A stretch of DNA of 64,000 bases from a virus. Taxonomy: Duplodnaviria > Heunggongvirae > Uroviricota > Caudoviricetes. Location of the stretch: IMG/VR virus record IMGVR_UViG_3300045988_152699; one strand, written 5' to 3'. The position numbers and the translations under genes were made by a program. The notes beneath the pieces are model-generated. The model searched no databases. It saw only the letters and a list, made by a program, of their open reading frames with translations, and had not been told where the DNA came from. Shown here one piece after another: positions 8,391-40,140 of the stretch (positions are counted from its first letter, which is position 1; the number at the start of each line of letters is the position of its first letter).

Positions 8391-9485
8391 TCACGAGAAG
8401 CTTTTTTCTGATGTCAGCCAACAGTGCTCGTGCAAATCTCTTGGTGGTTTTTCGACAAATGCCTCTTCAGCCACATCCTGCCAGGGGATTTGTTTAGCCC
8501 ATTCAGTTATAGCGTTATGGTTTGCCGAGAATAACGGTATTGTATAGGCCTTCAGCCAGTCTAATGTGCTGGAGTTGTGTTTTTGAGCGTGATGTTTCGC
8601 ATGGTGTTTGGCGATCACGATCGTAGGCACTACCCATTTACTACCGTCAGTCATTGTGAAGTGCATATTACGGGGAACAGATGACTTTTCCATCAACTCC
8701 CGAATCCCGGGGAATTTCCCCAAGATCAATCGGCGATATTCATCGCTATTGCGCCCACCAAACTCTTTGGCTTTGAATTCAAGATATGCTTCAGAAACGA
8801 GAGGTGAATCCTCTGTGTTTAGAGTTATCGCCGTGAAAAAACCAGCAGGATTGTTTTTACTATGGGCCAACCGGTGATGCGAATCATAAAAGTACCCTTT
8901 CTCGCGTTCCGATGGTTTCGACAGCAACAGCAGGCGCGAGTCATAATTGGTTAAATTGCCAGTTATCACTGCATGAGCGCGATCGCTGATTTCCGCCGAG
9001 TTAATAACGATGAAAAGATCGTGCGGTCCAGTAAAACCAGCCAGAGACTCTTCGTTATTCAGACAATAGGTTATATAGACGCATCCCCATGTTTCACTGA
9101 TATGCACCAACCCTTTGTCAGGGTGTATTCTGAAATAATTGCCAAGAAAAGGGTGTTTTTGGGTAACTCGCTCCCAATAACGGAACATATAGTCAATTAT
9201 TGTTTTTCGACTATCGTTAATCGCAGGAGAAACAACCACTGTACGGGAACACGAATACAGTATTGTTTGCAGGATGCTAATCACTGCCACAATAGAGGTT
9301 TCCCCAATACCATGTGGTGTGGTGGCAGTGACTTTGGCTCCGGTGTTCTTTATCGCGTTAATAATTTTTGCTTGATGAGGTGTTAACTCAATATCAAGCA
9401 ACTCTTTTGCTGCCAGTTCCCAATTGTCTTTATACCGTTCTATCAGTGCTAACCAGGCAGATTCATTCTGTATACGATTAATCAC
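8391..9485 (-). CDS. Paralog of the terminase large-subunit (PacB) ATPase domain with degenerate Walker motifs
   Basis: Collinear with the N-terminal ~270 aa of PacB (28591..30075), e.g. [24 protein letters not shown] versus [23 protein letters not shown]; Walker A reads HGIGETS (PacB HGTGKS) and Walker B FIVINSAE (PacB YIIDEAS). Confidence 0.6.
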   Translation of the reverse strand: MINRIQNESAWLALIERYKDNWELAAKELLDIELTPHQAKIINAIKNTGAKVTATTPHGIGETSIVAVISILQTILYSCSRTVVVSPAINDSRKTIIDYMFRYWERVTQKHPFLGNYFRIHPDKGLVHISETWGCVYITYCLNNEESLAGFTGPHDLFIVINSAEISDRAHAVITGNLTNYDSRLLLLSKPSEREKGYFYDSHHRLAHSKNNPAGFFTAITLNTEDSPLVSEAYLEFKAKEFGGRNSDEYRRLILGKFPGIRELMEKSSVPRNMHFTMTDGSKWVVPTIVIAKHHAKHHAQKHNSSTLDWLKAYTIPLFSANHNAITEWAKQIPWQDVAEEAFVEKPPRDLHEHCWLTSEKSFS

Positions 9486-14771: not shown

Positions 14772-17700
14772 ATGAACAAGCTATCTATGGGGGTGTTTCG
14801 CTGTTCAAGTGTCAGCGAAATATTGAAATACATTAGGGCAATAACATCTCACCGAGCGCCGATTAAATACGGCGTGGAAAAGGTGGAAGGCAAAAGCTAT
14901 GACCGACTGCGCCGGGAGGCGAATCAGAAGGCGATAGATTTGCTTAATTCGCTGGTGGACGGCGCGACACTGACAGATGAACAGCGCCAGATCCTGGCTG
15001 GGTACACCGGTGAAGGCGGCATTGGCGGGTCCGTCTCCGAATATTACACACCAAAGCCGATCGCTGAAGGTGTCTGGGAGATCATGAAGCTCTACGGCGC
15101 GGACGTAGGTAACACTCTGGAACCATCGGCGGGCACCGGCGTTTTTAATGAGACAAAACCGGTTGGTACGGTGATGACTGCGACTGAGATCAGCAGTGTT
15201 TCCGGTCGTATAAACCAGCTGTTACACCCGGAAGACAGCGTACAGATTTCCCCGTTCGAACAGCTGGCTGTAAGCACGCCTAACGATTCATTCGACCATG
15301 TTGTGGGTAACGTTCCGTTCGGTGGTCGTGATAACACACGCAACATCGATAAGCCTTACGCAGAAGAAACGGACATGGGTTCTTACTTCATGCTCCGCAT
15401 GCTGGACAAGATAAAGCCAGGCGGATTCATGTGCGTGATTGTGCCGCCGTCCATTGTTTCAGGTTCAAACATGAAGCGGTTACGCCTGCGCCTATCACGG
15501 AAAGCTGAATTTCTTGGTGCCCACCGCTTGCCTACCGGTACTTTTGACGCAAACGGGACCAGTACGGTCGTTGACGTGGTGCTGATGCGCAAACATCCGG
15601 CGGAGATGGCTGAGAAAATCCCCCTGGTGGATGAAGGCACTCTTGAATCGGCAAATGTGCTTTGGCCAACGTTTATTTCTGGCAAGTGGTTTGAAAAGGA
15701 CGGTCGCCGGTTTGTTCATGGCACCCAGGAGAAGGGATTCCAGGGGCGTATTGAGGTTCGTGCCGACGGGCAGATTGATAACCAGGCTCTTAAAGCGAAG
15801 CTGATTCATCGTTTCGAAAGTCGTATCGACTGGTCTTTGCTCAATATGGCTGAACCGTCACCGACCGCAGACGTTGTTGATGAAGGGGAAATGCGCCTGA
15901 TTAATGGCGTATGGCAAAAATATGCTGGTGGTCGCTGGATTGAATCTGATGCAGGGAAGGAGCTGAAGATTGATGTTGCCAGTTATGGCGCGGACAGCTG
16001 GGAGGCTCTTCAGCGTAACCTGACTACAACAGAAGGCCGTCTCGGTATGACATTTACCCAGATGGCAAATGTCCGCGATAAGTACACCACATCAATCAGC
16101 GACGATATGGTGCAGCTGGTGGACTGGATTAACAGCCAGCCTGAAAAATACCGTGAACGCTTGTATCGCGGGGCGATGATTGGCCGGATGTTAATTGAAT
16201 ATCAGGACATGAAGGCCGCCGGGCATAGTGCTGAACAAATCGAACAGCAGCGCCTTTCTCTGGTATCCCGTTTGCAGGCAGAGATTGACCGTTTTGGTAA
16301 CCCCGGTCGCGGTCCGATAGCGAAATTATCGGGGAGCGGTGCGCGCGCCTGGTTTGCTTTCCGTGGTGCAATTAAGCTGGATGGCACTATTTCTGACGAG
16401 CTGACAGGAAAACTGGTTACGCATGATTCCAGCGCCAGTTATGACTCCACCAGCTATCAGGACACCCTGCGTTATCTCTACAGTGATCTCACTCGCGATC
16501 CAATCCAGCTCGATGATTTCCGCCTTGCGTTTACCGGCGAACTGCCAGCCAGTGATGACGAGTTGCTTAATTTATTGGCCAGCACCCCTGGCATTGCGGT
16601 TTCACCGTATGGCGGGATTGTTCCGTTCGCCCGCGCCACCAGCGGCGACATTAACGAGATAGTGGCACCAAAACAGGAATTCCTTGCCACACTCCCCGAC
16701 GGTCCAGTAAAGAACAACGTCCTTAATCAGCTGGCAGCGATCGAAGAGAAGCGCATCAAGACGCCAGCAGAGAATATCCGCTTTAAGCTCAATAGCCGTT
16801 GGTTCGACCGTTCCGTCATTCTGGAATTTTTGCAGGAAAACGGCTATCCGGATCTTCGCTATGTGCAGTCAGTGCAGCTGGAAGGCGACGAAATGGTTTC
16901 TGACACCTATCACGGTGGTGATGGTCTGTTCGTCGGGCACCGATACGGTGTCGTCCAGCGCAAGGATAAAGAAACAGGCGAGATCCGCTACGAGTGGGAT
17001 CGTAAATCAGGTGAAAACGCGACCGGGTTCCCGGCACAGCTGGAAAAGTATCTCAATGGTGCGCGTATCGGTGGCAAAGATAGCGCGACGGCGAACGGCT
17101 ACCGCGAGCAGATGGCACTGCTTGAGGACCAGTTCAATAAGTGGATCAAGACGCACGATCGCTACGATGAACTGGTTGCCAAATACAACGATGTGTTCAA
17201 TAGCAATATCCCGTATGAACACTCTGGCGATCCGCTTGGGTTGAAGGGATTAAGCGGTAAGCGCCAGCCATTTGATTACCAGAATAGCGAAGTGCGCCGA
17301 CTGTCCGAAGATGGGCGCGGCATCCTGGGCTTCGGCACTGGGCTGGGTAAAACTACGACCGCGCTGGCGCTTGAGGCGTTCAACTATGAGAACGGTCGCT
17401 CCACCCGTACTGCGTATGTAGTGCCTAAATCAGTGCTGGAAAATTGGTATTACGAAGCTAAAGAATTCCTGAGTGAAGAGGCATTCAGTAACTATTTGTT
17501 CGTCGGTCTTGATGTGCTGATGGATGGCGATCAGATTCGCCAGGTGCCGGTGCTCGATGAGAACGGTAAACCTGTTCTTGGTACTGATGGCACTCCAGTT
17601 ATGCGTGATGCTCTTAAGCTGGCAGATGAAGCCACTATCACGGCGCGGATGAATGCGATCCCGCACTCAAATTACCGTGCAGTCGTGTTTACCAAAGAAC

Positions 17701-20700
17701 AATACGCCCGCATTCCGCTACGTGATGACACCGTAGATGAGCATGCACAAGACATGCTTTATGACTTCGTTGCTGCCGGACGTGTGGCCAGCGCAATGGA
17801 TTCCGATTCCCATCGCAAAGAGGCGGCGCGTCGCCGGGTATTGTCGGAGTATTCAGATACCGGTACCGAAAAAGCAGAGAAGTATCCGTACTTTGAGGAT
17901 ATGGGCTTCGACAGCGTGATCGCCGACGAAGGCCACAACTACCGCAATAGCTATAAAAATGGTCGCGAAGCGTCACAGCTGGCCTATCTGCCCACCAGCG
18001 CGGTGGCGCAATCGGCGCGAGATATGGCAATCAAAAACGCGTACCTGATGAAAAAGAATGGCGGGCGCGGACCGGTTCTCCTGACTGCAACGCCAGTCGT
18101 TAACACCCCGATCGATGCATACAACATGCTTTCTCATGTTCTGCCGAAAGAATACTGGCAGAAGATGGGGATCTACGGTCCTGATGACTTCGTTAAATTC
18201 TTCGGCAAGACCAGGCTGGAAACGGTACAGAAAATCAGCGGTGAAGTTGAAGAAAAAATGGCGCTGGTGGGCTTTGAAAACCTTGATGCGCTGCGCGGCA
18301 TATTCCATCGCTGGACAACGCTTAAAACGGCGGAAGACGTTAAGGATACCGTGGAGATCCCGGAACTGGACGAACACCAGCAGGATGCACCACTTACGGA
18401 AGAACAACTGGCGGCGTATGAAGAATTGCGTCAGCAGGCGGAAGCGGCAGCCAAAGCCAACAATGGCGTAACGACCTCGGTCAATGAAGACGGCGTGATT
18501 GAGCACGAGAAAGCCCGTCCGATCTTCTCAATAATCAGGGATATGGACCGCGTATGTACTGACATGGACCTGTACTATCGCCGGATCACCTATCGTTTCC
18601 TGCCGGAGTACGCCGATGCGGTGCAGCAGCTGGCGGACAGTTTGCCTAAACAAGCCACCAGCGAAGACGACGACAGTGATGATTCAATCACGCAGCAATC
18701 GCAATACTCCCTGATAGATAAGGGCGAGTTTATTCAGTTGCAGGTTCCGGAAGCGTTCGAGCAGGAAGTGAATAAGCGCCTGGCCAGGTTTGGCATTGAC
18801 GAACAGACCGTAACTCACCCCGTTACGCCCAAATACGCGAAGCTGATTGCCACGCTGAAGGAGTTTTTCCCGGAAGGTAAGCAAATCATCTTCACCGATG
18901 AAAAAACGCAACACCAGAAGCTCAAGCGCATTATCTGCAATGCTCTTAACCTTGAACCTTCAAAGGTGGGGATCCTGAATGCTCAGACGGTTGCCGAGGC
19001 AGGTAAAACCGGTAAGAAACTGAAAGCGGTTAAACCACCGAAAGAGCTACCGGATGAACCAACAGATGCACAGATAGCGAAATACAACGAGCAAATGGCT
19101 CTGTATGACGCCTATATCGCGCAGCAAAATGAAATGTCGTTGGGCGGTCTGGAAAAGATTGCAGCCGACTTCCAGGAGGGCCGGACTCCGATCATCATCT
19201 GCAACAAAAAGGCAGAGGTGGGTATCAACCTGCATCGAGGAACGACGGATATCCACCACCTGACGTTGCCGTGGACACCAGCCAGTATCGCACAACGTAA
19301 CGGTCGCGGTGCACGAGTTGGCTCCAACCGTGCAAGCGTTCGCGTTCACTACTACTGCGGCAAGGGGTCTTTCGATGAATACCGACTGAAGACGCTGAAG
19401 CGTAAAGCAGGCTGGATCTCCGATATCCTCCGTTCAGATAAGTCAGAAATGGAGAACGCCGACGCCAATGACATGATCGAAATGCAGATGTATACCGCGA
19501 AGGATGACGGCGAACGTCTGGCAATGATGCAGGTTCAAATGGATAAGGCGAAAGCTGCGAAACGCGCTCGCCAGAAAGAACAGGCTACTATCGACCTTCA
19601 GAACTACATCAAGGCGCAGCACGCAGCTGGTGAGGATGTGGAGGTACTTACCGCTGAATTGGAGCGAAGCAAAGCGGAACTTGAAAAGACCACCGCCGAC
19701 GTCGCCAAATTCAAACAGGCGGTAATGGCCAAAGCAGCGGATAACGCAGACTGGAAAGCCCGCTGGGGTAGCGTCCATCACACAGACCGTATGTTGTTAG
19801 CACAGTATCGCGCGTCGTTGAAAAGCGCCATTCAGCGCAAGGCTAATATCTCTCAGGCCATCTCCCGCTATGAGAAATTATTGAACCGTACTCAGAAGGC
19901 CGCGACGGATATCAAACGCCTGCGCCCGCTGGTGGAGGATGCAATAAATAAAGGCATTCTGGATGTTGATCCTGATCTGGTTAACCATGCGAATGAGTTC
20001 CTTGTTATCGGCGATCGCTCATGGCGTGTAGGCCAATACTATGATTGTGCCGGTGATATCGTTCGCATTAAGTCGCTGGACTTCGACAGCCAGCGCGCAG
20101 ACGTGGAGATCATCTTTACCTTCAAAGGCACCAAATCGGGTAACTGGGATGTGAAGACGCTGGATAAACAGGTTGATGTAACTCCCGATGAAGATGCTGT
20201 TATGCAGAAAATCAGTGGTGGCGTCTCCATCGCCGGGATTAACGACATCATTTCCTGTGACGATTTCTACCGTTTCCAGCAGCGCGGTATGATCAAAATC
20301 ACTGACTCATACGGCGTTCAGACTACAGAGTCAGGCTATAGCATTGATTTTGTTGGTTCCTATACGGCCCCACTGAAGCATGCGGTTTACCCGGATCGCC
20401 GTGACGGCGCGCTGAAGTCGTCAATTGCAAAATGGGTGCTTGGTATGATGTCGGAAGGGAATAACCGCCAGATCCGTTCGGCAGAAACATTCCTGGTTGA
20501 ATTGTTTGGCTCCAATTATGGCGATGTAATCGCGTCATACGGAGATACGCTATCCCCTGAAGCAATTCAGGAGAAAATAGCGGATGCGATCGCCAGAATG
20601 CCGGAAAAAACAAGCCAGGGGGCTACTCGTAACGGGGATTCTGAACTTGAAGTCACCAATGCTATTTTCGGTACCCATGAGTTCCGGGCGTCAGATTATG

Positions 20701-21539
20701 AGATCACCACAGCACAGTTTGGCACCATTGGCATTTACAGCAATAAAGCCGAGATCAAGCAGGCAATGGACGCAGCAAGCGCGCGCATCGCAGCAGAACG
20801 GGAAGCCAATCTGAATCATGCAGTCGCCGCGCTGACTCAATCGTGGGTAACAGCAATCAGGGAGGCCGCCACCACAGGGAAAATCACACCTGCAATAGCG
20901 GATGTCGTAAACGACGGCTCTAAATTTATGGATGCCTATCAAATGGATGCGGTGAAGTTGCCATCAGCCTATGGTCAACTCAGCTATCGCATGACCTACA
21001 ACCTGGTATCAATGTTTTCCGACCTTGCCATCCTTGGGCTGGTGGATCTTAACGAGGTTACGCCGGAATTGCTCAGCATGCGCAAGAATCATGTGGAGAT
21101 ATTGCAGAGAATTAACACGGTTCTTGCCGGGCGCACCGATGAAGAGAAACAGGCCGACGCTGATCGGATAAACCTGGCCCTTGGCAACATCACGGAGGAA
21201 GAGATTGCCGCCAGAAACGAGAAACAAGAAGAGTTATCATCAATACAGGGTGATGCCACCAGCATAGCTCAGTCTCTTGGTCTGAATTATCGCGTATCCA
21301 CCGCCGACCTGAAGATGATGTACGCACCAAAATTCGCCGCTGGCGAGGTATTTGGGCTTCAGGAAGCCTCAGGCATGAAAGGCGTTCTTTTCCGTGCGAA
21401 AGACGCAATCAAGGCGAAATTCGGCGCTCGCTGGCTGCCAGCGAAGGCGAAGAACAGCGATTTCCCGGGTAACTGGTGGATTATCGAGACAAAACACAAC
21501 GTGGCGGACGTTCTGGCCGTCATCCAACAATACGCATAA
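14772..21539 (+). CDS. darB: DarB, giant antirestriction protein with N6-adenine methyltransferase and helicase domains
   Basis: 2255 aa; N-terminal MTase motifs (EPSAGTGVF, VGNVPFG); central superfamily-2 helicase motifs (GTGLGKTT Walker A, ADEGHNYRN DEGH box); length and context match P1 DarB. Confidence 0.85.
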   Translation: MNKLSMGVFRCSSVSEILKYIRAITSHRAPIKYGVEKVEGKSYDRLRREANQKAIDLLNSLVDGATLTDEQRQILAGYTGEGGIGGSVSEYYTPKPIAEGVWEIMKLYGADVGNTLEPSAGTGVFNETKPVGTVMTATEISSVSGRINQLLHPEDSVQISPFEQLAVSTPNDSFDHVVGNVPFGGRDNTRNIDKPYAEETDMGSYFMLRMLDKIKPGGFMCVIVPPSIVSGSNMKRLRLRLSRKAEFLGAHRLPTGTFDANGTSTVVDVVLMRKHPAEMAEKIPLVDEGTLESANVLWPTFISGKWFEKDGRRFVHGTQEKGFQGRIEVRADGQIDNQALKAKLIHRFESRIDWSLLNMAEPSPTADVVDEGEMRLINGVWQKYAGGRWIESDAGKELKIDVASYGADSWEALQRNLTTTEGRLGMTFTQMANVRDKYTTSISDDMVQLVDWINSQPEKYRERLYRGAMIGRMLIEYQDMKAAGHSAEQIEQQRLSLVSRLQAEIDRFGNPGRGPIAKLSGSGARAWFAFRGAIKLDGTISDELTGKLVTHDSSASYDSTSYQDTLRYLYSDLTRDPIQLDDFRLAFTGELPASDDELLNLLASTPGIAVSPYGGIVPFARATSGDINEIVAPKQEFLATLPDGPVKNNVLNQLAAIEEKRIKTPAENIRFKLNSRWFDRSVILEFLQENGYPDLRYVQSVQLEGDEMVSDTYHGGDGLFVGHRYGVVQRKDKETGEIRYEWDRKSGENATGFPAQLEKYLNGARIGGKDSATANGYREQMALLEDQFNKWIKTHDRYDELVAKYNDVFNSNIPYEHSGDPLGLKGLSGKRQPFDYQNSEVRRLSEDGRGILGFGTGLGKTTTALALEAFNYENGRSTRTAYVVPKSVLENWYYEAKEFLSEEAFSNYLFVGLDVLMDGDQIRQVPVLDENGKPVLGTDGTPVMRDALKLADEATITARMNAIPHSNYRAVVFTKEQYARIPLRDDTVDEHAQDMLYDFVAAGRVASAMDSDSHRKEAARRRVLSEYSDTGTEKAEKYPYFEDMGFDSVIADEGHNYRNSYKNGREASQLAYLPTSAVAQSARDMAIKNAYLMKKNGGRGPVLLTATPVVNTPIDAYNMLSHVLPKEYWQKMGIYGPDDFVKFFGKTRLETVQKISGEVEEKMALVGFENLDALRGIFHRWTTLKTAEDVKDTVEIPELDEHQQDAPLTEEQLAAYEELRQQAEAAAKANNGVTTSVNEDGVIEHEKARPIFSIIRDMDRVCTDMDLYYRRITYRFLPEYADAVQQLADSLPKQATSEDDDSDDSITQQSQYSLIDKGEFIQLQVPEAFEQEVNKRLARFGIDEQTVTHPVTPKYAKLIATLKEFFPEGKQIIFTDEKTQHQKLKRIICNALNLEPSKVGILNAQTVAEAGKTGKKLKAVKPPKELPDEPTDAQIAKYNEQMALYDAYIAQQNEMSLGGLEKIAADFQEGRTPIIICNKKAEVGINLHRGTTDIHHLTLPWTPASIAQRNGRGARVGSNRASVRVHYYCGKGSFDEYRLKTLKRKAGWISDILRSDKSEMENADANDMIEMQMYTAKDDGERLAMMQVQMDKAKAAKRARQKEQATIDLQNYIKAQHAAGEDVEVLTAELERSKAELEKTTADVAKFKQAVMAKAADNADWKARWGSVHHTDRMLLAQYRASLKSAIQRKANISQAISRYEKLLNRTQKAATDIKRLRPLVEDAINKGILDVDPDLVNHANEFLVIGDRSWRVGQYYDCAGDIVRIKSLDFDSQRADVEIIFTFKGTKSGNWDVKTLDKQVDVTPDEDAVMQKISGGVSIAGINDIISCDDFYRFQQRGMIKITDSYGVQTTESGYSIDFVGSYTAPLKHAVYPDRRDGALKSSIAKWVLGMMSEGNNRQIRSAETFLVELFGSNYGDVIASYGDTLSPEAIQEKIADAIARMPEKTSQGATRNGDSELEVTNAIFGTHEFRASDYEITTAQFGTIGIYSNKAEIKQAMDAASARIAAEREANLNHAVAALTQSWVTAIREAATTGKITPAIADVVNDGSKFMDAYQMDAVKLPSAYGQLSYRMTYNLVSMFSDLAILGLVDLNEVTPELLSMRKNHVEILQRINTVLAGRTDEEKQADADRINLALGNITEEEIAARNEKQEELSSIQGDATSIAQSLGLNYRVSTADLKMMYAPKFAAGEVFGLQEASGMKGVLFRAKDAIKAKFGARWLPAKAKNSDFPGNWWIIETKHNVADVLAVIQQYA

Positions 21540-21572
21540 CAGGAGCGCCCGGTTCGCCGGGCGTCGCATAAT

Positions 21573-22013
21573 ATGGCCACACTATCTGATACAATAAAAC
21601 CGAATAAAACATATCTTGAGGCGGTACTCCGTACAGCGTTGTTAGGAAAGACAGAAGACGAATACGTTGATTTCTTCCTGTCAGGGCTACGCGGGCGATT
21701 ACTGAAAAATCCCCGCCTGTACCGCAGCTATGGTCCATACTGGCCGGAAATTAAAAAATTATTACTGGAGCGCGGTTATGGTAATTTCGGTCGTCTCGTT
21801 GACCGTGACGTTCGCAAAATTTACCGTTATGACCGCCCGGCGCTAACACTCATAGCCGCGACGCTCTACAGCCAGGAGCGTTTTGATAATGGTCAGATAT
21901 ACTCAGCCTGGCATTTACTGCCAGTGCCTGAAGAAGTTGACGACCAGGACTATGAGTTTGAGTCTTACGATTTGGAAGTTGAAGCCTTGGCACAGGCTGG
22001 AGAGAAAACTTGA
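21573..22013 (+). CDS. ulx: Ulx-like protein (downstream of darB)
   Basis: 146-aa ORF immediately after darB; assigned by synteny only. Confidence 0.45.
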   Translation: MATLSDTIKPNKTYLEAVLRTALLGKTEDEYVDFFLSGLRGRLLKNPRLYRSYGPYWPEIKKLLLERGYGNFGRLVDRDVRKIYRYDRPALTLIAATLYSQERFDNGQIYSAWHLLPVPEEVDDQDYEFESYDLEVEALAQAGEKT

Positions 22014-22258
22014 AAAAGCGATACTACACAGTAAAGCATGGGACGCTACGAGCATTACAAGAGTTTGCTGATAAGCATAACGTTGAGGTGCGCAGGGAAG
22101 GGGGAAGTAAAGCTCTGCGCATGTACCGTCCGGACGGGAAATGGCGTACGGTCGTCGATTTCAAAACTAACAGCGTTCCCCAGGGCGTCCGCGACCGGGC
22201 ATTCGAAGAATGGGAGCAGATCATCATAGATAACGCATTGCTCCTGAATGCTGATTAA
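22010..22258 (+). CDS. lxc: Lxc-like small protein (modulator of C1 repression in P1)
   Basis: 82-aa ORF overlapping the ulx stop; position as in P1; followed by a terminator. Confidence 0.45.
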   Translation: MKKRYYTVKHGTLRALQEFADKHNVEVRREGGSKALRMYRPDGKWRTVVDFKTNSVPQGVRDRAFEEWEQIIIDNALLLNAD

Positions 22259-22266
22259 ATCTTTGG

Positions 22267-22292
22267 CTATGCCTGGCTAAGCCAGGCATAGG
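22267..22292. terminator. Perfect palindrome CTATGCCTGGCT-TA-AGCCAGGCATAG between convergent genes
   Basis: 12-bp perfect inverted repeat between the lxc stop and the stop of the RelA/SpoT-domain gene. Confidence 0.5.
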
Positions 22293-22295
22293 AAT

Positions 22296-23417
22296 TTACA
22301 CAGTATCAATGTGTCTGCTAAGGAATCTCCCGAACTGATTTGTTGACCCAAAATAGTTAGGATAAGCCTTTTTAAGAGATTTAATGTTGTTAGTGGCAAG
22401 CAGCACCGCAATTAATACTTCAGGATCCGCATCATCCTTATTAAGTTCCTGGAGGGCTTGTTCCGATTCTTTTTTCCTAAAAGGTTTCACAGAAACAAGA
22501 AACTTTCCAGTATCCTTGCCATTTTTTGTTATGGCGTTTCTCATCCTCACCAAAAAGAATCCATTATGGTTTTTGGGCAGGCTTTTCTTTAGGTTTGCAT
22601 CTGATGTCAGCTTCATTGCAAATGTATATGTACTTAATTTTGAGCGAACAGATAAAGCCTCCTCCAATGTTTTAAGCTCTGTTTGATAATTTTTGATGGT
22701 TTCATCATCAAGAATACAGGCACCTTCATCATGAGCAACTAGGCATCCAGAAAGATAAAAAAATCTTCTCCACTCAGGGTGACCTTCATTAGAAGTTTTC
22801 AGCTTAATATTTTCAAGTGTATCTATTATCTCCAGACTTGTTGCCCAAGCATGTTGGAGTTCTGTTCTTAGTTGTACTTCGATTTTAGTTTTACTCCACG
22901 GATTGTTACCGTTTTCTTCATCAAAACAACTATATGCAAGGTGAATGCCACTATATCCGCTTGGCTTTGGAGTTAAATAGTCATATTCCTTTAAGATTTT
23001 ATGCTTGGAGCGACTTTTAACTAGTCGGTCTTTTAGTTTCTTTAGTTGTTCGATGTTTCTAACTATAGCTCTACATCCGCCAATATCCTGCATTCTAGTA
23101 AGGGCTATTGCATTATTTGTTGCGCCGCCGTCAAGACTTGGACGCTCCAGTTTATCAATTATTGTGCTAAGTCTTTTTAGGCGTCTTGCAACAATAATCT
23201 TATTCTCTTTATCAACTTTTTTTGCAGCCCTATCAAGATGATTTTTCATTAGCATCAATGGATATAAATGAAGCTCGCGGAAATTTTGAATCATTTTAAT
23301 TGCTTCTTCTCGCTCTGCGCCCTCACAACCATGTCTAATTTTTCTGGCTGCTTTTTCTATTTGAGATTTCGAATATTTAAGTTCGCATTTTTGGCTTTGA
23401 TATACTTCACTGCCCAT
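22296..23417 (-). CDS. Fused toxin-antitoxin with a RelA/SpoT (toxSAS) nucleotidyltransferase domain, CapRel-like antiphage protein
   Basis: RelA/SpoT synthetase motifs DIGGCRAIV, G-loop GYSGIHLAY and EVQLRTELQHAWAT; a ~170-aa C-terminal extension; single gene at the position of the P1 res/mod locus; likely start is the second or third ATG (the track start is TTG). Confidence 0.75.
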   Translation of the reverse strand: MGSEVYQSQKCELKYSKSQIEKAARKIRHGCEGAEREEAIKMIQNFRELHLYPLMLMKNHLDRAAKKVDKENKIIVARRLKRLSTIIDKLERPSLDGGATNNAIALTRMQDIGGCRAIVRNIEQLKKLKDRLVKSRSKHKILKEYDYLTPKPSGYSGIHLAYSCFDEENGNNPWSKTKIEVQLRTELQHAWATSLEIIDTLENIKLKTSNEGHPEWRRFFYLSGCLVAHDEGACILDDETIKNYQTELKTLEEALSVRSKLSTYTFAMKLTSDANLKKSLPKNHNGFFLVRMRNAITKNGKDTGKFLVSVKPFRKKESEQALQELNKDDADPEVLIAVLLATNNIKSLKKAYPNYFGSTNQFGRFLSRHIDTV

Positions 23418-23480
23418 TACTAACATCCAGTTCAAATGATTAATGTGTTGTTACATATAATAACAAATCAAGCTAGAAAT

Positions 23481-23507
23481 CAATGGGTATGAAAATGAAA
23501 CATACCC
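23481..23507 (-). terminator. Stem-loop ATGGGTATG-(9 nt loop)-CATACCCAT between the unknown ORF and the RelA/SpoT-domain gene
   Basis: 9-bp perfect stem; the downstream sequence is only moderately T-rich. Confidence 0.35.
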
Positions 23508-23529
23508 ATAATGTTACCTAACGTAACTA

Positions 23530-24171
23530 TTATAAATAGTTCTGTTTACCTGTTAATTCTCCTTGCGGCACTTGTTTTTGCGTTAGTGTTTGAGTTCCGC
23601 GAATTATGTTAATCAGGGGACTTAGTAATGATGGTTCCTGATGGGCCTCAACTTCTCCAGCCATTGCCCTGATGTAGTCGGCGCTGGCAACGTTGTTGTA
23701 TTCCGTCGCAAAGCAACATAGTAACGTCAGAACATGTTCTGTCGTTATTTCGCTCCAGTTGATGTTGAAAAATTCATCGCCTTTTTTATCGTGTTCGGAA
23801 TCGAAGATGCTTTGGTGAAGGATGTATTTGCCGGATTCCTTGCGCGGTAACTTGATCGCTTTCTGGCGTTCCAATTCCTTGTAAATCTGCATTGCTTCAA
23901 TCAGTACCGGTCTGCCGTTCATGAAGGGATCACGCAACCTTACACGCTGGCCAACTCGACCGGTAATAAAGCTGTTTTCCTCTTCCACCAGCACGATAAA
24001 ACCCTTTTCCTCTTTTTCTCGCAATTCGCGCAGCAGCTGGAGTTCCATATCGCGGCGGCGTTCAGGGTAGCTGGTCCGCTCAGCCATTATCAGCTCATTG
24101 TTGATCCATGCAGCAGTCATTGACGCCGGTTTGCCGACGCTCATTGAAACAACGCATATTTTCTTATCCAT
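23530..24171 (-). CDS. Hypothetical protein between ref and the RelA/SpoT-domain gene (possibly the P1 mat equivalent)
   Basis: 213 aa from the ATG at 24171 (AGGGG SD upstream; the track start at 24198 is GTG); no recognisable motif; occupies the position of P1 mat. Confidence 0.45.
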   Translation of the reverse strand: MDKKICVVSMSVGKPASMTAAWINNELIMAERTSYPERRRDMELQLLRELREKEEKGFIVLVEEENSFITGRVGQRVRLRDPFMNGRPVLIEAMQIYKELERQKAIKLPRKESGKYILHQSIFDSEHDKKGDEFFNINWSEITTEHVLTLLCCFATEYNNVASADYIRAMAGEVEAHQEPSLLSPLINIIRGTQTLTQKQVPQGELTGKQNYL

Positions 24172-24359
24172 AGCGCCCCTACAAAAAAGAAAAGCCACCA
24201 GCGGCGGCTTAGCAATACAACTGAAGGTAGCGCCCGGTACTCAGACTGTGCCGTCCATGGAATATTTGAAAAGGGATCCATCCGTACCGGGCGTGTGATG
24301 ATTCTGACTCAAGTCACTTGTCAGTTGTCAATCATTTAAGATTAAAAATAATATATTTA

Positions 24360-24920
24360 TTAGTGCATGATGTTTGCCATTTCATAGGCGTCAGCCAGCA
24401 ACTCCATCTCTGACTTGTTCAACAAGGTGAATTCTTTCTTGCCTCCTACCACGCCATCTGCATGAACAGGGACCAGCCAAGGGTATTTTTCTCTTACTTC
24501 AGCCGGTGCTGCATGCTGGTGGTGCCATCTGCAAAGGGGCAATTGCTTTTTGTGACAACCCGGCGCGGTACGACCGGAGATATGGTGCAGAGACACCTCT
24601 TCAGATATTACTCCATGCATGTAGCAGGCAATGCAGGGGAGAGTGCCAAGAGCATTGGCGATGGTCCGTTCCTCCGCCGTCGGTGTTCGCCCCTTCAAGC
24701 CACGAGATTTTATTTTTACCGCACTTTTCCGCGTTTTGCTGGCTGGTGGGCGCTCTTTCTGTTTAGCGATACGGCGGTCGATAGAATCCCGCATTTTCTG
24801 ATATTGCGATTCTCGCCAGGCGGGGTCAGCCAACTTTTCCCGTTGCCGAGCGATCGCTCGTTCTCTGGCTGCCTTCTGCCACTCGCGGCGCTGTTCAAGT
24901 TTTTGTTCGATTGTTTTCAT
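24360..24920 (-). CDS. ref: Ref, HNH-family endonuclease (recombination enhancement function)
   Basis: 186 aa with an HNH-like Cys/His cluster (CIACYMHG…HHISGRTAPGCHKK…CRWHH) and a basic N-terminus; position next to cre as in P1. Confidence 0.8.
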   Translation of the reverse strand: MKTIEQKLEQRREWQKAARERAIARQREKLADPAWRESQYQKMRDSIDRRIAKQKERPPASKTRKSAVKIKSRGLKGRTPTAEERTIANALGTLPCIACYMHGVISEEVSLHHISGRTAPGCHKKQLPLCRWHHQHAAPAEVREKYPWLVPVHADGVVGGKKEFTLLNKSEMELLADAYEMANIMH

Positions 24921-34213: not shown

Positions 34214-34336
34214 AGCGTTTTACCTCAATGATACTGTTTATTCATACAGTATACATTGAAAAGGCATAGTTTGTGAAAGCGGGGTTTGTAGGCGCGCCAC
34301 GCTGGGGGCTAATCACATTTCTCCCCCATCTTGCCG

Positions 34337-34588
34337 TTATTTTTTTGGTGCATCCTCGTTCTGATACACCGGATCGCTCCCTTTTGGCAACTGGAGGCTT
34401 AACTGCCGGTAGTGCCGTAGCCGTTCCATGAAATAGGCGCGCAGGTTTTCCGGTTGCTCACGGGCCACCTGCTCTGCAATCACAGGTATATTCAGCCGTT
34501 CTTTGTAAGCAACGCCGCTGGCGGCAAGGTCTACGTTCACCTTGTCTCGCTCTTCCTGGCTTTTAGCTGCTATATTTCGATCTGACAC
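34337..34588 (-). CDS. hot: Hot, homolog of the DNA polymerase III theta subunit
   Basis: 83 aa; [36 protein letters not shown] resembles E. coli HolE. Confidence 0.8.
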
Positions 34589-34955
34589 AGGAAACCTCCA
34601 GGAGTTAGTGGATCAGGCACATGCACAATAACGTTCTCAATGTTAGCCGTTCAATTCAGACAATCAGAGACTGCACCAGTGTGGTGGCATCAATCCCATT
34701 GCGGAACAGCATAGACGAACTGCAAATTCGTGTATTGAATCCGAATCAGGCTAATAAGCAATTGCGCTTTATTTTGACGCTGAAAAGTGAAACAGAGGGG
34801 ATAAAGCACAGCGTAAAAGTGTTTTCTGAGGCCATTCTGCTTAATGGGAAGCTCCGGCATCTGGTAAGGCCAGAACGTCAATATCCTGACGTCCTGGCGC
34901 GTGAAAAAGACCTTCTTTCTGAAGTTCAGGATAGGGGGATCGATTTCGTCAAATG

Positions 34956-35321
34956 CTATCCCCTGCATTGAGGGCAGGTGTTCCCTTCCGCAAAGTAGGG
35001 AAAATTGCTATCAAGTTCATCACACCATCTGCGATGGTCGTAGCACCAAAACGCCTCCCACGGTGCACGGAAATACTTCATCCACCAGGACACTCGATCA
35101 GGTATATCTGCTGGTGGCAGTTCTTCTGGCAATAATTTGCCTGATAATTCCCTTTCCGCCCGCGACAGCATTTTTTTGAGGCTCGCGTTCTCTTTTTCAA
35201 GCTCATCTACGCGCACCTGTAATTCAGCTTTCGTTGGCATGGTCCACCTCATGCTTTTCAGCCACCAGCGGCAATAAAGCCCTGGCCATCTTATGAACCA
35301 ATAGTGCATCAATAATGCCAA
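34956..35321 (-). CDS. Hypothetical protein (possible lxr position)
   Basis: ORF with a C-terminal CPQC motif and a coiled-coil segment; likely starts at an internal ATG. Confidence 0.35.
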   Translation of the reverse strand: MALLMHYWFIRWPGLYCRWWLKSMRWTMPTKAELQVRVDELEKENASLKKMLSRAERELSGKLLPEELPPADIPDRVSWWMKYFRAPWEAFWCYDHRRWCDELDSNFPYFAEGNTCPQCRG

Positions 35322-36162
35322 GCGTATGCCCCGGCTTAATGTTTAATGCTGCCTCAAGATGACACCTTTCCAGACCGCTTTTCTCGGCTTGTTTATGATG
35401 ATATGGCGTAATAACGTCGCCCAAAACACGGCTAATTCTTTCTCGTAATTGCTGGGTGCCAGCACACTTGATCGCTGTATCGTGGAGACGGTTAACCAGT
35501 TCGCGATAAACATGCGGCTTAATGCGGATACGTTCACCGGTGACGCCCTTTCCTGGCGCTGGCACCGAACTATCCGGAATATCCGGATAGTTGCCAGCCT
35601 CGTAAGCTACCCGCAGCCAGTGCATGAATGTTTCAGTGGACACACAACCACAGTCCACATCGATTTTCCCGCGTTGCTGTTCCAGCCATTGCCCAAAATC
35701 CAACCTGTAAGTCTTACTTTCAAGTTCATCACCATTGAACTCGACTTTCTGCGACGCTATGAGAGCTGATTCGTATTGTTCGCGAGTGACAACTGACTGG
35801 TATTCATCGCTATCAAGGTCACCAATTGGAAGCTCAATATCACAACAAAAATTGCGCCCAAAGAAAGTGTCTTTTTTGTGGTCTGAGCCAAAAGCAAAAG
35901 TCGCGCATGGTGCCATTAAATTGACACTGGGTAGGTAACAATAACTCATTCCATCAGGCCACCCGCCGCACTTAGGCAGCTCCTTCACTAACAAGTCGAT
36001 AAACTTCATTTTTTTATCATCTTTGCAAGCCGCCAAAACCATTTGGGCAAGTGCCAATACTTCATCTGCCGTATATCCAGCACCGTGACCATACATTTCG
36101 ATACGGGAAATAATCTCTGATATACGCTCTTCAGTGATTCTGGTCATTTCTTTTTGCGCCAT
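35224..36162 (-). CDS. Hypothetical protein
   Basis: 312-aa ORF in the operon; no recognised motif. Confidence 0.4.
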   Translation of the reverse strand: MAQKEMTRITEERISEIISRIEMYGHGAGYTADEVLALAQMVLAACKDDKKMKFIDLLVKELPKCGGWPDGMSYCYLPSVNLMAPCATFAFGSDHKKDTFFGRNFCCDIELPIGDLDSDEYQSVVTREQYESALIASQKVEFNGDELESKTYRLDFGQWLEQQRGKIDVDCGCVSTETFMHWLRVAYEAGNYPDIPDSSVPAPGKGVTGERIRIKPHVYRELVNRLHDTAIKCAGTQQLRERISRVLGDVITPYHHKQAEKSGLERCHLEAALNIKPGHTLGIIDALLVHKMARALLPLVAEKHEVDHANES

Positions 36163-36518
36163 TTCTTTTCACATTCCTTAGTCCATTTTTCAATGTTCAT
36201 TTTGGCAATATCAGTCATTCCATCACCTAAGAAATACTTTCTCCGGTACGTCTTGCACTTAAACCACACTACAACAGCCACCAGCCAGAAAATAAAAGGC
36301 CATACAGCAATACCAACGACAGCCGCGATAAAGCCCAATAGCCATAAATGAAGCTCTCCAACTTCTGTTTCCGGCAATATTCTTAAAGAATTAAACAGCA
36401 GGCTGAACGAATGGTCGTATGCATTGGCAGTATAAGACATGCAATCCATATAATTAAAGTCATAGCCTGCGGCTGCCGCCCATAATGGGCGGTCAAGAAA
36501 ATGTTTTAGTGTCATCAT
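36144..36518 (-). CDS. Membrane protein
   Basis: 124-aa ORF with a strong TM segment and a Lys-rich C-terminus. Confidence 0.4.
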   Translation of the reverse strand: MMTLKHFLDRPLWAAAAGYDFNYMDCMSYTANAYDHSFSLLFNSLRILPETEVGELHLWLLGFIAAVVGIAVWPFIFWLVAVVVWFKCKTYRRKYFLGDGMTDIAKMNIEKWTKECEKKWRKKK

Positions 36519-36524
36519 ATAAAT

Positions 36525-36914
36525 TTAAGGTTCAGACCAGTTATCTTCAATAGCAATGCTTAATCTTTGTAGCCATTCTGCTAATTTCAGCATTGCTTCT
36601 CTTTCGCTTAAACCACGAGGAAAATCATCAAGCGAAATTGTTGGCTTGAAGCCACCGTAATTATCCATTTCAACAGTCAGATTTTGCTCCAGCACGGTAT
36701 TCCTTACGCGGCTATTGTGCCGAAGCAAATATACTGAACGTGATTTATTGGTTTTATGGTCAAACTGATATTCGGTAAGTATCATCTGGCTTTTGCCATG
36801 ACTATTACCTCTCCACATACTTACCTCACTTAATAAAACAACTCCATGCGTAGTTGATGATTTTTTCCCACGCAATATAAATCTGCACTCCGGCAGTAAA
36901 ACCAAAGCCAACAA
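36525..36914 (-). CDS. Hypothetical protein
   Basis: 129-aa ORF; tightly packed in the operon. Confidence 0.35.
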   Translation of the reverse strand: MLALVLLPECRFILRGKKSSTTHGVVLLSEVSMWRGNSHGKSQMILTEYQFDHKTNKSRSVYLLRHNSRVRNTVLEQNLTVEMDNYGGFKPTISLDDFPRGLSEREAMLKLAEWLQRLSIAIEDNWSEP

Positions 36915-36996
36915 TTGCTGAAAAAATCAAAACATTTACTTTTGACATTATAAATTTTCTCTCGGTGTCGTAGGTGATAGCACCATAATTGATAAT

Positions 36997-37230
36997 TTAG
37001 TGAGTTAGCAGTTCCATTTTTTTGATGATTTCCGCATGAGCATCATCGTTATCAACACTTAGCTCGTTTAATGCTTCTCGCACTACATCAACTTCTTCAG
37101 GCTGAAAGAAGTCGTCGCGGTAATCACCAAATAGAACCGAAACCAGCCTGCCACCAGCAACATCAAGATTGGCGCTAACAGGTGGCTCTTTGCCATCCTC
37201 AAATTCGACAACAAAAGTTAATTTTCCCAT
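36997..37230 (-). CDS. Hypothetical small acidic protein
   Basis: 77-aa ORF. Confidence 0.35.
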   Translation of the reverse strand: MGKLTFVVEFEDGKEPPVSANLDVAGGRLVSVLFGDYRDDFFQPEEVDVVREALNELSVDNDDAHAEIIKKMELLTH

Positions 37231-37306: not shown

Positions 37307-37639
37307 TTACCGCACCTCAAGTCTCCATACCGCCTGACCAATCCGGCTGGCATGGGTATCTTTGGATACTGTTCCGTCTTTAGCCAGCTCCATAAGAATT
37401 TTGCGCAAATCTGCCGAGCGCCATTCTTCATCAGGAAATTCCTTCTCCATTGCCAACCGCAGATTCCAGGTTGCTATCGTGAATGGATATTCACCGCCGA
37501 GAGCTTTCTCTTGTAGGGCAGCACGGGAACGCATCACCTGCAAAACCTTCTCTTTTACATCCATCATTTCGCCTCCTGCGGCGGTTCTGGTAGCGGCATC
37601 CAGTGTGATGGAATCCACGACGCACCAGGTATTACCCAC
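37307..37639 (-). CDS. Hypothetical protein
   Basis: ORF up to 110 aa, probably starting at an internal ATG. Confidence 0.35.
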   Translation of the reverse strand: MGNTWCVVDSITLDAATRTAAGGEMMDVKEKVLQVMRSRAALQEKALGGEYPFTIATWNLRLAMEKEFPDEEWRSADLRKILMELAKDGTVSKDTHASRIGQAVWRLEVR

Positions 37640-38439
37640 CCATCATTAGCGTCAGGATGCCCCGGGATGTAAGTCGCCCATTTCATTCGCCAGTCACCTT
37701 TCCTGTCAAACTCCCTGGCAACAAGAACGGCTGTTTTGGTATCCGGCATTCGCTCACTACAGCTTATCCAACCATCCGGAGTTACCGGAACTTGCGGAAT
37801 GGCTGTCTGCTCTCGAACGTCATTAGGCGCTATAGGTTCTGCTGCCAACTGACTGGCATATTTGTTAATGGTAACGATAAGCTCTTGCTCAGCCTCATCC
37901 AGACAATCACCGATACCTCGCCTGTCACCGTCAAAATCATCGAAATCGGCACGAATCTTGGCAACCTTCAAGATTGCGGACAACACCTCACTAGGAATTA
38001 CCGGATAGTTGGTTGACGTTTCCGCGATTTCCCGAAAATTATTGGTTGACGAATTCTTGTTTTCCCGAAAGTTTCCGGACTGAAGCATGGCGGCGCGGCA
38101 GGCGTTCCAGCCTCTTACCTCTGCAATAGCGGCAACAGCATCAACCGCGTACATGCTAAGAGGATTAGGCATTGGTTTTTCTTCCGGTACTACTGGAACG
38201 GGTGGAGCGGCGAATAGATGTCCTCCAAAGTCAGGAAGCTCTCCAATGGCCTGTACGAACTTTTGTTTGCCTACGTCAATTCCTAATGGGTAGTGAGCTA
38301 TAATTTTTGCCACTGGCTCTGCCTCCAGTGATGCCAGAGCAATTTCATAAGCACGGCGCTCAATATTGTCTCTCACATCCAGGCTACCTATGCGCTCTTT
38401 GATTTCTTTAATCAGTTCTTTGTCGGTTAAAGTGGTCAT
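37564..38439 (-). CDS. Ea22/ead-like prophage protein with a C-terminal DUF551-like Trp/Pro-rich domain
   Basis: C-terminus …DGWISCSERMPD…DWRMKWATY…GW…WIPSHWMPLPEPP resembles DUF551 as recalled; N-terminal coiled-coil. Confidence 0.45.
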   Translation of the reverse strand: MTTLTDKELIKEIKERIGSLDVRDNIERRAYEIALASLEAEPVAKIIAHYPLGIDVGKQKFVQAIGELPDFGGHLFAAPPVPVVPEEKPMPNPLSMYAVDAVAAIAEVRGWNACRAAMLQSGNFRENKNSSTNNFREIAETSTNYPVIPSEVLSAILKVAKIRADFDDFDGDRRGIGDCLDEAEQELIVTINKYASQLAAEPIAPNDVREQTAIPQVPVTPDGWISCSERMPDTKTAVLVAREFDRKGDWRMKWATYIPGHPDANDGWVIPGASWIPSHWMPLPEPPQEAK

Positions 38440-38821: not shown

Positions 38822-39481
38822 TTACGGTTTTTCATCGCTTTGCTCTCCTGCATCTCCTTTGGTGCGAATTCCAGCGGCGCGTGGCACATTAACTTCCACG
38901 ATGCGCACAGTTGGTTTGTACATCTCAATCGCAGTCAGCCAGTCAGCGCCAGTCATGCGCTTTTCTGCATCGCCATTAGTCCACTTAACCGGTACACCAA
39001 TAGCCTTCATCGCGATTTCTATTTCCCCGGCAATGGCGCTTTTTCCGCAACCAGTAAAACCAGATACAACGACCAGAACTTCACCTTTGGCTGGTTTTAT
39101 TTCCCGCGCTTCCAGTTCTGCTATGCGCTTACTTCCATCCGAGATAACACCTTCGTAATACTCACGCTGCTCGTTGAGTTTTGATTTTGCTTCCTCAAGC
39201 TCAACTCTCAGCTTCCCTACCGTTAGCGCAATATCCTCGTTCTCCTGATCGCGGCGTTTTATGTATTGCTGGTTTCTTTCCCGTTCATCCAGCAGCGCCA
39301 GCACGGTTTCTGGTCCGGTCAGAAATTTGAAGGCGTTGAGCGCATCAATATCCACACCGTAATCTTTAAGTTCCTGTTCACTTAACAAATCATCATCAGC
39401 TGGCAACATTAACAGGCGTTCCATTGCTGGAATTGCACGTTCCGCCGCCTCACGCAGTGCCTGGTAATTAATTTCGCTCAC
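38822..39481 (-). CDS. Ea22-like protein (paralog of the next gene)
   Basis: N-terminus MSEINYQALREAAERA… parallels MARMTIDYQVLREAAEKA… of ORF 39478..40140; P-loop-like GFTGCGKS in the C-terminal half. Confidence 0.45.
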   Translation of the reverse strand: MSEINYQALREAAERAIPAMERLLMLPADDDLLSEQELKDYGVDIDALNAFKFLTGPETVLALLDERERNQQYIKRRDQENEDIALTVGKLRVELEEAKSKLNEQREYYEGVISDGSKRIAELEAREIKPAKGEVLVVVSGFTGCGKSAIAGEIEIAMKAIGVPVKWTNGDAEKRMTGADWLTAIEMYKPTVRIVEVNVPRAAGIRTKGDAGEQSDEKP

Positions 39482-40140
39482 TGGTTGCCTCCTTTGCGAA
39501 GCTGGGCAGCAAAGTCAACTAACCACTCAGTCATTTCAACCTTCCCTACCAGGTCTGAACCAGGGTGCATACAGCAATCACTCTGCGCCGCTTTGAAATC
39601 CTTATACTCATATTCTTGGGCCACCAGATTTTTTGCAGCTTCTATAGCAGCATCCACCCCCTGCGCCCGCACTTCAGACAGGAAAGCATCGGTAGCTGGA
39701 GTTTCGCTGTGGTGCAGGGCATCGTTGATAATCATTGCAGCAACTCCGGCCTGCCCTGCATCCGTGACCGACACATGCTCAAGAGTTACGGCCATTGCGT
39801 GTTTCAGCCCAGCGTTCTCTGCCACCAGCGCAGCGAGATTAGTCTCAAGCTCTGAAATTCGGCACGTGGCATCAATATTTGTGTCCTCCAAGCACTTAAT
39901 TTCACCAAGCAGCTCCAGTGCAACCTTTGGGTTGAACGCGGCAACATGACGAGCGTTGTTCTCTGCATTTTTCTGTCCATCAAAGCCGGTCCATTTGATA
40001 ACGTCTTCACATCGTTCATCACCGGGCGTGTGCACCGCATAAGTACCAGTATCCGTCGAAATAAATGCGACCCATTCGTCTGGTGTTGCCTTTTCTGCCG
40101 CCTCACGCAGTACCTGATAGTCAATTGTCATTCTCGCCAT
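39478..40140 (-). CDS. Ea22-like protein (paralog of the previous gene)
   Basis: Shared N-terminal YQ(A/V)LREAAE(K/R)A domain; overlapping start/stop with its neighbour. Confidence 0.45.
   Translation of the reverse strand: MARMTIDYQVLREAAEKATPDEWVAFISTDTGTYAVHTPGDERCEDVIKWTGFDGQKNAENNARHVAAFNPKVALELLGEIKCLEDTNIDATCRISELETNLAALVAENAGLKHAMAVTLEHVSVTDAGQAGVAAMIINDALHHSETPATDAFLSEVRAQGVDAAIEAAKNLVAQEYEYKDFKAAQSDCCMHPGSDLVGKVEMTEWLVDFAAQLRKGGNQ

Follow-up and report, generated by a model that had tools for sequence, protein, structure and literature searches.

The closest described relatives of the gene analysed here are the fused toxSAS toxin-antitoxins of the CapRel type, of which CapRel-SJ46, from Salmonella phage SJ46, was termed 'the best-studied antiphage toxSAS' in a 2026 preprint. 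The N-terminal fragment of CapRel-SJ46 is toxic and the C-terminal fragment rescues in trans (PMC9712102). Together with its native upstream region, the gene lowered the plating of T2, T4, T6, RB69, and SECphi27 by 10- to 1000-fold; defence was seen at low MOI only, which indicates abortive infection, and phage protection was abolished by Y155A (PMC9712102). The major capsid protein of SECphi27, Gp57, binds the C-terminal domain, is both necessary and sufficient for activation, and stimulates tRNA pyrophosphorylation by CapRel in vitro (PMC9712102). The C-terminal domain, which is the variable, specificity-determining part of the protein, has a zinc-finger-like fold without cysteines and was called a 'pseudo-ZFD' (PMC9712102). 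In the closed, autoinhibited form, a YXXY motif docks on the ATP/adenine site (PMC9712102, PMC11578894). Gp54 of phage Bas11 is a second, unrelated trigger of CapRel-SJ46 and binds an overlapping surface (PMC11578894). PDB entry 7ZTB is a structure from the CapRel-SJ46 study (Zhang et al., Nature 2022, PMC9712102), and 9ERV is the crystal structure of the complex with Gp54 (Zhang et al., Nature 2024, PMC11578894).

Two further anti-phage proteins, CapRel-Ebc of Enterobacter chengduensis and CapRel-Kp of Klebsiella pneumoniae, have the same fused domain plan and the catalytic G-loop tyrosine, which is Y153 in CapRel-Ebc. PMC9712102 gives CapRel-Ebc an identity to CapRel-SJ46 of 70% over the whole protein and 47% over the C-terminal region, and a different specificity (T7). 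A 2026 paper reports that CapRel-Ebc senses T7 Gp0.4 and links its activation to the host cell-division protein FtsZ. More distant are PhRel/ATphRel of mycobacteriophage Phrann and FaRel2/ATfaRel2, in which a homologous toxSYNTH domain pyrophosphorylates tRNA and the antitoxin is homologous to the CapRel C-terminal region. In these systems the toxin and the antitoxin are separate proteins, whereas the gene described below is a single ORF. According to a survey preprint from 2025, P1-like phage-plasmids rely for defence mainly on CapRel, type III restriction-modification, dGTPase, and PrrC, with CapRel being more common in E. coli.

Identity and architecture of the ORF

The window, by which we mean the whole stretch of 64,000 nucleotides that was analysed, contains an uninterrupted ORF of 379 codons on the minus strand (22296..23435). 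In a search of all PDB chain sequences, residues 7-379 of this ORF were identical at 373 of 373 positions to chain A of 7ZTB (373 aa, E 1.6e-250), and chain A of 9ERV (372 aa) was matched over all of its 372 residues (E 9e-250). The DNA from 21400 to 24388 was 100% identical to Salmonella phage SJ46 (KU760857 / NC_031129), in which the counterpart CDS (56389..57510, 1122 nt, 373 aa) carries the name 'RelA/SpoT family protein' and a note that reads 'GTP pyrophosphokinase'. Judged by its sequence, the ORF is the same protein as the published CapRel-SJ46 and not merely a homologue of it. The main reading, to which we assign a probability of roughly 97%, is therefore that the ORF is the SJ46 allele of capRel, a fused toxSAS toxin-antitoxin that defends the host of a P1-like phage-plasmid by abortive infection. 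No result spoke against the identification. The coordinates of the gene, its parts, and its neighbours are collected in Table 1.

Table 1. Features of the capRel locus in the window
Feature	Coordinates	Strand	Basis or detail
lxc (modulator of C1 repressor), backbone gene left of the slot	22010..22258	+	ORF listing; P1 and SJ46 annotation
Whole non-P1 cassette, 1270 bp	22260..23529	.	blastn breakpoints 22259 and 23530
Perfect palindrome CTATGCCTGGC-TAA-GCCAGGCATAG	22267..22291	.	z -4.1 and -4.75 on the two strands
capRel CDS, 373 aa and stop	22296..23417	-	ATG per SJ46 annotation and crystallised protein; 373/373 vs 7ZTB_A
C-terminal antitoxin and sensor region, residues 201-373	22299..22817	-	published domain description; Cys only at 225 and 234
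YXXY neutralisation motif, YPNY, residues 352-355	22353..22364	-	Y355 named in PMC11578894
RelA/SpoT nucleotidyltransferase (toxSYNTH) core, residues 79-193	22839..23183	-	Pfam PF04607; R79, R116, DIGGCRAIV, G-loop, EVQLRTELQHAW
G-loop Tyr155 codon, catalytic residue	22953..22955	-	Y at position 155
In-frame upstream extension of the maximal ORF	23418..23435	-	TTG at 23435, ATG at 23426
111-bp upstream region, published 'native promoter'	23418..23528	-	gBlock TZ-1 native sequence begins AGTTACGTTAGGTAAC, ~23528
Stem-loop, 9-bp stem and 9-nt loop, then UUGAUUUCU on the minus strand	23483..23509	-	z -2.1 to -3.1
mat (maturation control), backbone gene right of the slot	23530..24198	-	ORF listing; P1 and SJ46 annotation; blastn

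Residue numbers used here refer to the 373-aa protein, which begins at the second ATG of the maximal ORF (23417). An N-terminal toxSYNTH domain is present, both by identity to 7ZTB and by a match to the Pfam family RelA_SpoT (PF04607, E 3.1e-13) that covers residues 85-199 of the maximal ORF; since the match scored 50.4 bits against a gathering cutoff of 27, it is well beyond chance. The three RelA/SpoT motifs are DIGGCRAIV at residues 111-119, the G-loop GYSGIHL at 154-160, and EVQLRTELQHAW at 180-191. Y155 lies within KPSGYSGIHL, and the ATP-coordinating residues R79 and R116 are also present. The PADLOC model PDC-S33 was matched from end to end, over 340 of its 349 profile positions (E 5.1e-87). 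PDC-S33 is one of the candidate-defence models of PADLOC.

The region that follows the core consists of anchor helices, a pseudo-zinc-finger domain without a cysteine cluster, and a C-terminal helical extension. C225 and C234 are the sole cysteines in the C-terminal half and no CxxC pair occurs there, and the pseudo-zinc-finger domain lacks zinc-binding cysteines by its identity to the crystallised protein. A YXXY motif is found near the C-terminus, as YPNY. Toxin and antitoxin are carried on one polypeptide, and apart from the CDS the cassette consists of just 36 bp on one side and 112 bp on the other, which leaves no space for a second gene.

These results bear on most of what had been proposed in a sequence-only reading of the same DNA, which saw in the ORF a fused toxSAS of the CapRel type, most likely a homolog of a known system. 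That proposal is borne out, and by evidence stronger than homology, namely identity at 373 of 373 residues to 7ZTB_A. All three motifs that it quoted were found in the translation, and the length of 373 aa and the position of Y155 are exactly those that it gave for the published CapRel of a P1-like Salmonella prophage. Of the checks that it suggested, the alignment against published CapRel gave identity at all 373 residues and the HMM search gave a significant RelA_SpoT match (E 3.1e-13). The C-terminal extension does lack a cysteine cluster as described, but it is 182 aa long after the last motif rather than about 170. The strand of the gene, minus, was absent from that reading.

The start codon is a minor point. 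The maximal ORF opens at a TTG (23435), which is replaced by TTA in a second CapRel allele that keeps both ATGs, and translation from this TTG is probably not used. No clear Shine-Dalgarno sequence was found before any of the three candidates, which are the TTG, Met4 (ATG at 23426), and Met7 (ATG at 23417). By sequence, Met4 and Met7 are both candidate starts; the annotation of SJ46 and the protein that was crystallised begin at Met7, from which the CDS is taken here. The earlier suggestion of a start at the third Met is right in that it yields 373 aa and places the G-loop tyrosine at residue 155, but the first 'Met' of that count is the TTG codon.

The window is a close relative of SJ46. The near-identity search stopped at 24388, and the possibility that the window is the SJ46 record itself was rejected, since homology ends at about 24400, at the Tn1721 of SJ46, and the darB of SJ46 is split. 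In SJ46 the Tn1721 transposase directly follows mat and darB is in two pieces, whereas the window has ref and an intact darB of 2255 aa. The likeness to CapRel-SJ46 thus extends to all 373 residues, to 100% of the DNA of the gene and its immediate flanks, and to the position between lxc and mat, and the difference is in the surrounding replicon only. Among the best matches to the window beyond SJ46 were two E. coli plasmids, NZ_MK256965.1 (99.7% over 8 kb) and NZ_AP022163.1 (98.9% over 24 kb). The capRel gene itself was found at an identity of at least 99.8% in 14 of 5426 complete E. coli genomes, and all 15 places were on plasmids.

Predicted mechanism and alternative roles

The present analysis established that the sequence is identical to CapRel-SJ46, that the catalytic and regulatory residues are in place, that a single gene is involved, and where the cassette ends and which genomic slot it occupies. 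The toxicity, the binding of triggers, the modification of tRNA, and the defence phenotype would carry over from the literature by virtue of the identity. In all of the published functional work the gene was on pBR322 or inserted in the E. coli chromosome rather than in its native phage-plasmid, and the copy in the window would be expected to be expressed and to act alike. In the resting cell, the N-terminal RelA/SpoT-type pyrophosphokinase would be kept off by the pseudo-zinc-finger domain, which would fold back and place the YXXY motif in the ATP/adenine pocket. During infection by certain phages, a phage protein would bind the C-terminal domain; two triggers are known, which act independently of each other, namely freshly synthesised major capsid protein (Gp57 in SECphi27 and relatives) and a small protein of Bas11, Gp54. 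The bound enzyme would then be held open and would pyrophosphorylate tRNAs with ATP, so that translation would stop and no phage would be released from the infected cell.

Database labels point in another direction. The SJ46 record names a GTP pyrophosphokinase, one plasmid record calls the gene product '(p)ppGpp synthetase', the top NCBIfam match is GTP diphosphokinase YjbM, and there is weak similarity to the structures of RelP, RelQ, and YjbM (E 1e-7 to 2e-4), all of which would suit an ordinary small alarmone synthetase that makes (p)ppGpp or (pp)pApp and acts on nucleotide pools rather than on tRNA. This is extremely improbable. The NCBIfam model NF053588 was matched at 39.4 bits against an equivalog cutoff of 320, which places the ORF outside that family, and the matches to small alarmone synthetases in the PDB, at E 1e-7 or weaker, cover the catalytic core alone. 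The autoinhibitory C-terminal domain of 182 aa is absent from housekeeping enzymes of this kind. For this exact protein, moreover, tRNA pyrophosphorylation and inhibition of translation have been published, and CapRel has been contrasted with the toxSAS enzymes that produce alarmones. A housekeeping alarmone synthetase is excluded by the NCBIfam score together with the published tRNA pyrophosphorylation.

A main role in plasmid addiction, with post-segregational killing as the selected function and phage defence as a side effect, is also highly improbable. The gene does reside on a low-copy plasmid prophage, its 15 places in the E. coli genomes are plasmid-borne without exception, and CapRel is formally a toxin-antitoxin. 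However, from established toxin-antitoxin biology, the differential stability on which addiction is based is not obvious for a single polypeptide, and P1-type elements already have phd-doc for this purpose, in a part of P1 to which the window aligns collinearly at 99% identity. The slot that holds capRel is occupied by restriction-modification genes or by nothing in other elements, which argues that its contents are dispensable for maintenance, and the published activation of CapRel is triggered by phage.

With abortive-infection defence by CapRel-SJ46 as the preferred reading, the gene product is already known in full molecular detail and is not new. It is the founding and best-studied member of the fused toxSAS defence proteins, and its exact sequence is the subject of two crystal structures and of two papers in Nature. 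The value of the locus as a discovery is small, since CapRel-SJ46 has been studied and CapRel has been surveyed as a common defence of P1-like phage-plasmids. Public annotation nevertheless still reads 'GTP pyrophosphokinase' or 'RelA/SpoT domain-containing protein'.

The cassette, its borders, and its transcription

The window derives from a P1-like (Punavirus) phage-plasmid. Most of it aligns collinearly with P1, in inverted orientation and at 95-99% identity, and the shared backbone includes darB, ulx, lxc, mat, ref, and cre as well as three tRNAs at the positions that they have in P1. The gene order ref-mat-res-mod(IS5)-lxc-ulx-darB of P1 corresponds to darB-ulx-lxc-capRel-mat-ref in the window, where mat is directly upstream of capRel and co-oriented with it. 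Homology to P1 stops at 22259, one base past the stop codon of lxc (22256-22258), and resumes at 23530, the first base of the stop codon of mat (23530-23532). The cassette between these points takes the place of P1 3469-9748, a segment of 6280 bp with res, mod, and IS5. Its GC content is 36.9%, compared to 48.4% for the window and 52% for darB, and this low value fits horizontal acquisition. The position of the P1 res/mod genes had been assigned to the ORF beforehand, correctly according to both the gene order and the blastn breakpoints, and the description of the locus as an autonomous cassette is supported by the borders at stop codons, the low GC, and the differing cargo of related elements. 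A search for further defence genes in the other non-P1 segments (8358-9476, 34267-35258, and 35606-41063) gave no PADLOC match, the only Pfam families found there were Ead/Ea22 and DUF551, and additional defence genes in these segments were rejected.

Hairpins flank the gene on both sides. The palindrome lies between the convergent lxc and capRel genes, 8 nt past the stop of lxc and 4 nt short of the stop of capRel. It forms a perfect stem of 11 bp with a loop of 3 nt, and a 61-nt fragment that contains it has a folding energy of approximately -23.6 kcal/mol. Each cargo variant has a different strong hairpin of its own at this place (z -5.1 in 673R5 and -3.2 in RCS47), which in P1 is a classical bidirectional terminator, located where mat and res meet. 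A role of the palindrome as a bidirectional transcription stop between the convergent genes is plausible. On the far side of the gene, the stem-loop may possibly act as a terminator for mat, as part of the capRel 5' region, or as both. It was rejected as a conserved regulatory element, since in the second allele, from pSA186_4, the equivalent region is no more stably folded than its shuffled versions (z -1.07). Together, the flanking hairpins would insulate capRel transcriptionally. Both structures exist where the sequence-only reading had a palindromic terminator on one side and a stem-loop on the other, but the word terminator is unproven for either hairpin; the palindrome has a T-run on neither strand and received no call in the terminator scan.

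The region that drives expression can be narrowed from published constructs. Upstream sequence of 100-200 bp was cloned into a promoter-less pBR322 backbone and the construct gave defence (PMC9712102). Because the construct with 111 bp gave defence, a sufficient promoter must lie within 23418-23528. A promoter scan of the minus strand found no match of at least 9/12 to the sigma-70 consensus in that interval. The single strong minus-strand site is TTAACA-16-TATAAT at 23556..23529 (11/12), which straddles the stop codon of mat; it was rejected as a required capRel promoter, since the functional gBlock starts at approximately 23528 and excludes it. Two candidates picked by eye, TTGATT-15-TATTAT with an upstream TG and TTGTTA-16-ATTAAT, were set aside, since they are weak and their conservation in the second allele is poor.

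Transcription of mat in P1 depends on two promoters, one of them repressed by C1 and the other late. Read-through from mat into capRel can be envisaged since the two genes are co-oriented, only a non-canonical and non-conserved stem-loop lies between them, and the 111 bp contain no recognisable sigma-70 promoter. A boost of capRel in this way upon prophage induction is nonetheless unlikely. If it did take place, the element would need some means of keeping its own capsid protein, a homologue of P1 gene 23 encoded outside this window, from triggering CapRel.

Variable cargo between lxc and mat

Comparison with related elements showed that the slot between lxc and mat holds different cargo from one to the next. 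P1 and P7 carry type III restriction-modification genes, and in RCS47 the slot is reduced to 39 bp with no gene. A second CapRel allele of 375 aa (WP_000526244.1) is found in the E. coli plasmid pSA186_4, and also in vB_EcoM-673R5, where the gene is split by frameshifts in the record. In JL22 the slot encodes a PIN-domain protein with a partial match to PDC-S34, and in vB_EcoM-Ro157c2YLVW an AraC-type regulator and an EAL-domain protein. The interchangeable contents of the slot are thus now documented at base-pair resolution as type III restriction-modification, two CapRel alleles, PIN, AraC with EAL, or nothing. The borders, which run from stop codon to stop codon, suggest that the slot may be a place where self-terminated defence cassettes are exchanged precisely.

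The EcoP1I res/mod genes of P1, with their counterpart in P7, resemble capRel in their position between lxc and mat and in protecting the lysogen from other phages. The sequence and mechanism are unrelated, two genes spanning approximately 5 kb are involved, and protection is by cleavage of DNA rather than by abortive infection. Orientation differs as well, with res/mod opposite to mat in P1 and capRel in the same direction as mat.

The CapRel allele of pSA186_4 shares the slot, the orientation, and the architecture of the gene in the window and is 74% identical to it in amino acid sequence. Y155, YPNY, and the catalytic motifs are conserved, and the same PADLOC model, PDC-S33, was matched (E 8e-86). 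The flanking structures are different, with another hairpin after lxc and no conservation of the 5' stem-loop. Identity between the two proteins is 79% over residues 1-200 and falls to about 59% over approximately 280-340, an interval that roughly corresponds to the pseudo-ZFD and is the most divergent part. This divergence, considered with the published results on chimeras, suggests that the second allele probably responds to a different range of triggers, and the concentration of differences in the C-terminal part agrees with the published role of that domain in determining specificity.

CapRel and other cargo between lxc and mat

The interval between the stop codons of lxc and mat is a swap site among P1-like genomes. 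It holds a type III restriction-modification system in P1 and P7, CapRel, in two alleles overall, in the window (22260-23529), pSA186_4 and 673R5, a PIN-domain protein with a partial match to PADLOC PDC-S34 in JL22, and an AraC-HTH regulator together with an EAL-domain protein in Ro157c2YLVW. In RCS47 the interval is 39 bp and has no cargo. The hairpin directly past lxc differs by cargo, each variant of the slot having its own.

The second CapRel allele, intact in pSA186_4, was annotated as two coding sequences in Escherichia phage vB_EcoM-673R5 (ON470615.2; 2422-3521 in our 673R5 sequence, L004). When translated in three frames, the 673R5 copy shifts frame two or more times compared with the pSA186_4 allele, owing either to sequencing errors or to gene decay.

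Promoter region and annotation of capRel

The 'native promoter' fragment described in the supplement of Zhang et al. (PMC9712102) comprises only 111 bp 5' of the capRel ATG (window 23418-23528). No consensus-like sigma-70 promoter was found within this fragment, and the best consensus promoter site lies just beyond it, at 23556..23529. The machine-read text of the cloned gBlock in that supplement (CATTAATCATTGAACTGG) differs by one T from the corresponding window sequence (CATTAATCATTTGAACTGG); this mismatch is probably an artefact of text extraction.

In public records, capRel (22296-23417), which has been experimentally characterised as a defence gene, is labelled 'GTP pyrophosphokinase', '(p)ppGpp synthetase' or 'RelA/SpoT domain-containing protein'. 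PADLOC v2.0.0 covers it solely under the candidate name PDC-S33, and it fell below the cutoff of every NCBIfam model.

Relationship of the window to SJ46 and P1

The possibility that the window is the SJ46 record itself (NC_031129, compared over 52493-61481) was rejected, because darB, undivided in the window, is made up of two annotated pieces in SJ46, where the Tn1721 transposase immediately adjoins mat, whereas the window has ref. Homology to SJ46 ends at approximately 24400 (last position 24388 in the near-identity search). The best match to the window was the E. coli plasmid NZ_AP022163.1, with 98.9% identity over 24 kb.

Features of the window outside the lxc-mat interval
Feature	Window coordinates	Strand	Remarks
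Serine invertase gene	65-646	+	complete; Resolvase and HTH_7 domains
364-aa ORF	8391-9485	-	occupies 1.1-kb non-P1 segment 8358-9476
darB	14772-21539		intact, 2255 aa
ref	24360-24920		present
DUF551 protein	37564..38439	-	in 5.5-kb non-P1 segment
Ead/Ea22-like protein	38822..39481	-	in 5.5-kb non-P1 segment
Ead/Ea22-like protein	39478..40140	-	in 5.5-kb non-P1 segment
tRNA (CAT)	55113-55188	-	position of P1 trnI
tRNA-Thr (TGT)	56620-56695	-	position of P1 trnT
tRNA-Asn (GTT)	56698-56773	-	position of P1 trnA

The serine invertase gene is only 70% identical in DNA sequence to P1 cin, while an adjoining stretch in the opposite orientation (778 to about 954) matches the first ~176 nt of cin at 85%. 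Given this low identity and the oppositely oriented cin-like neighbor, the invertible-segment system at the left end of the window may be a different one or may have been rearranged.

The 364-aa ORF, which had neither a Pfam nor a PADLOC match, stands where P1 has IS1 and the isaB region. The 5.5-kb segment without a P1 match (35606-41063) takes the position of the pmgT-pmgU region of P1; several further ORFs there had no match in the Pfam search, and PADLOC matched none of the segment's proteins. The tRNA with anticodon CAT was called tRNA-Met by ARAGORN, but is tRNA-Ile2 (ileX-like) in the P1 annotation.
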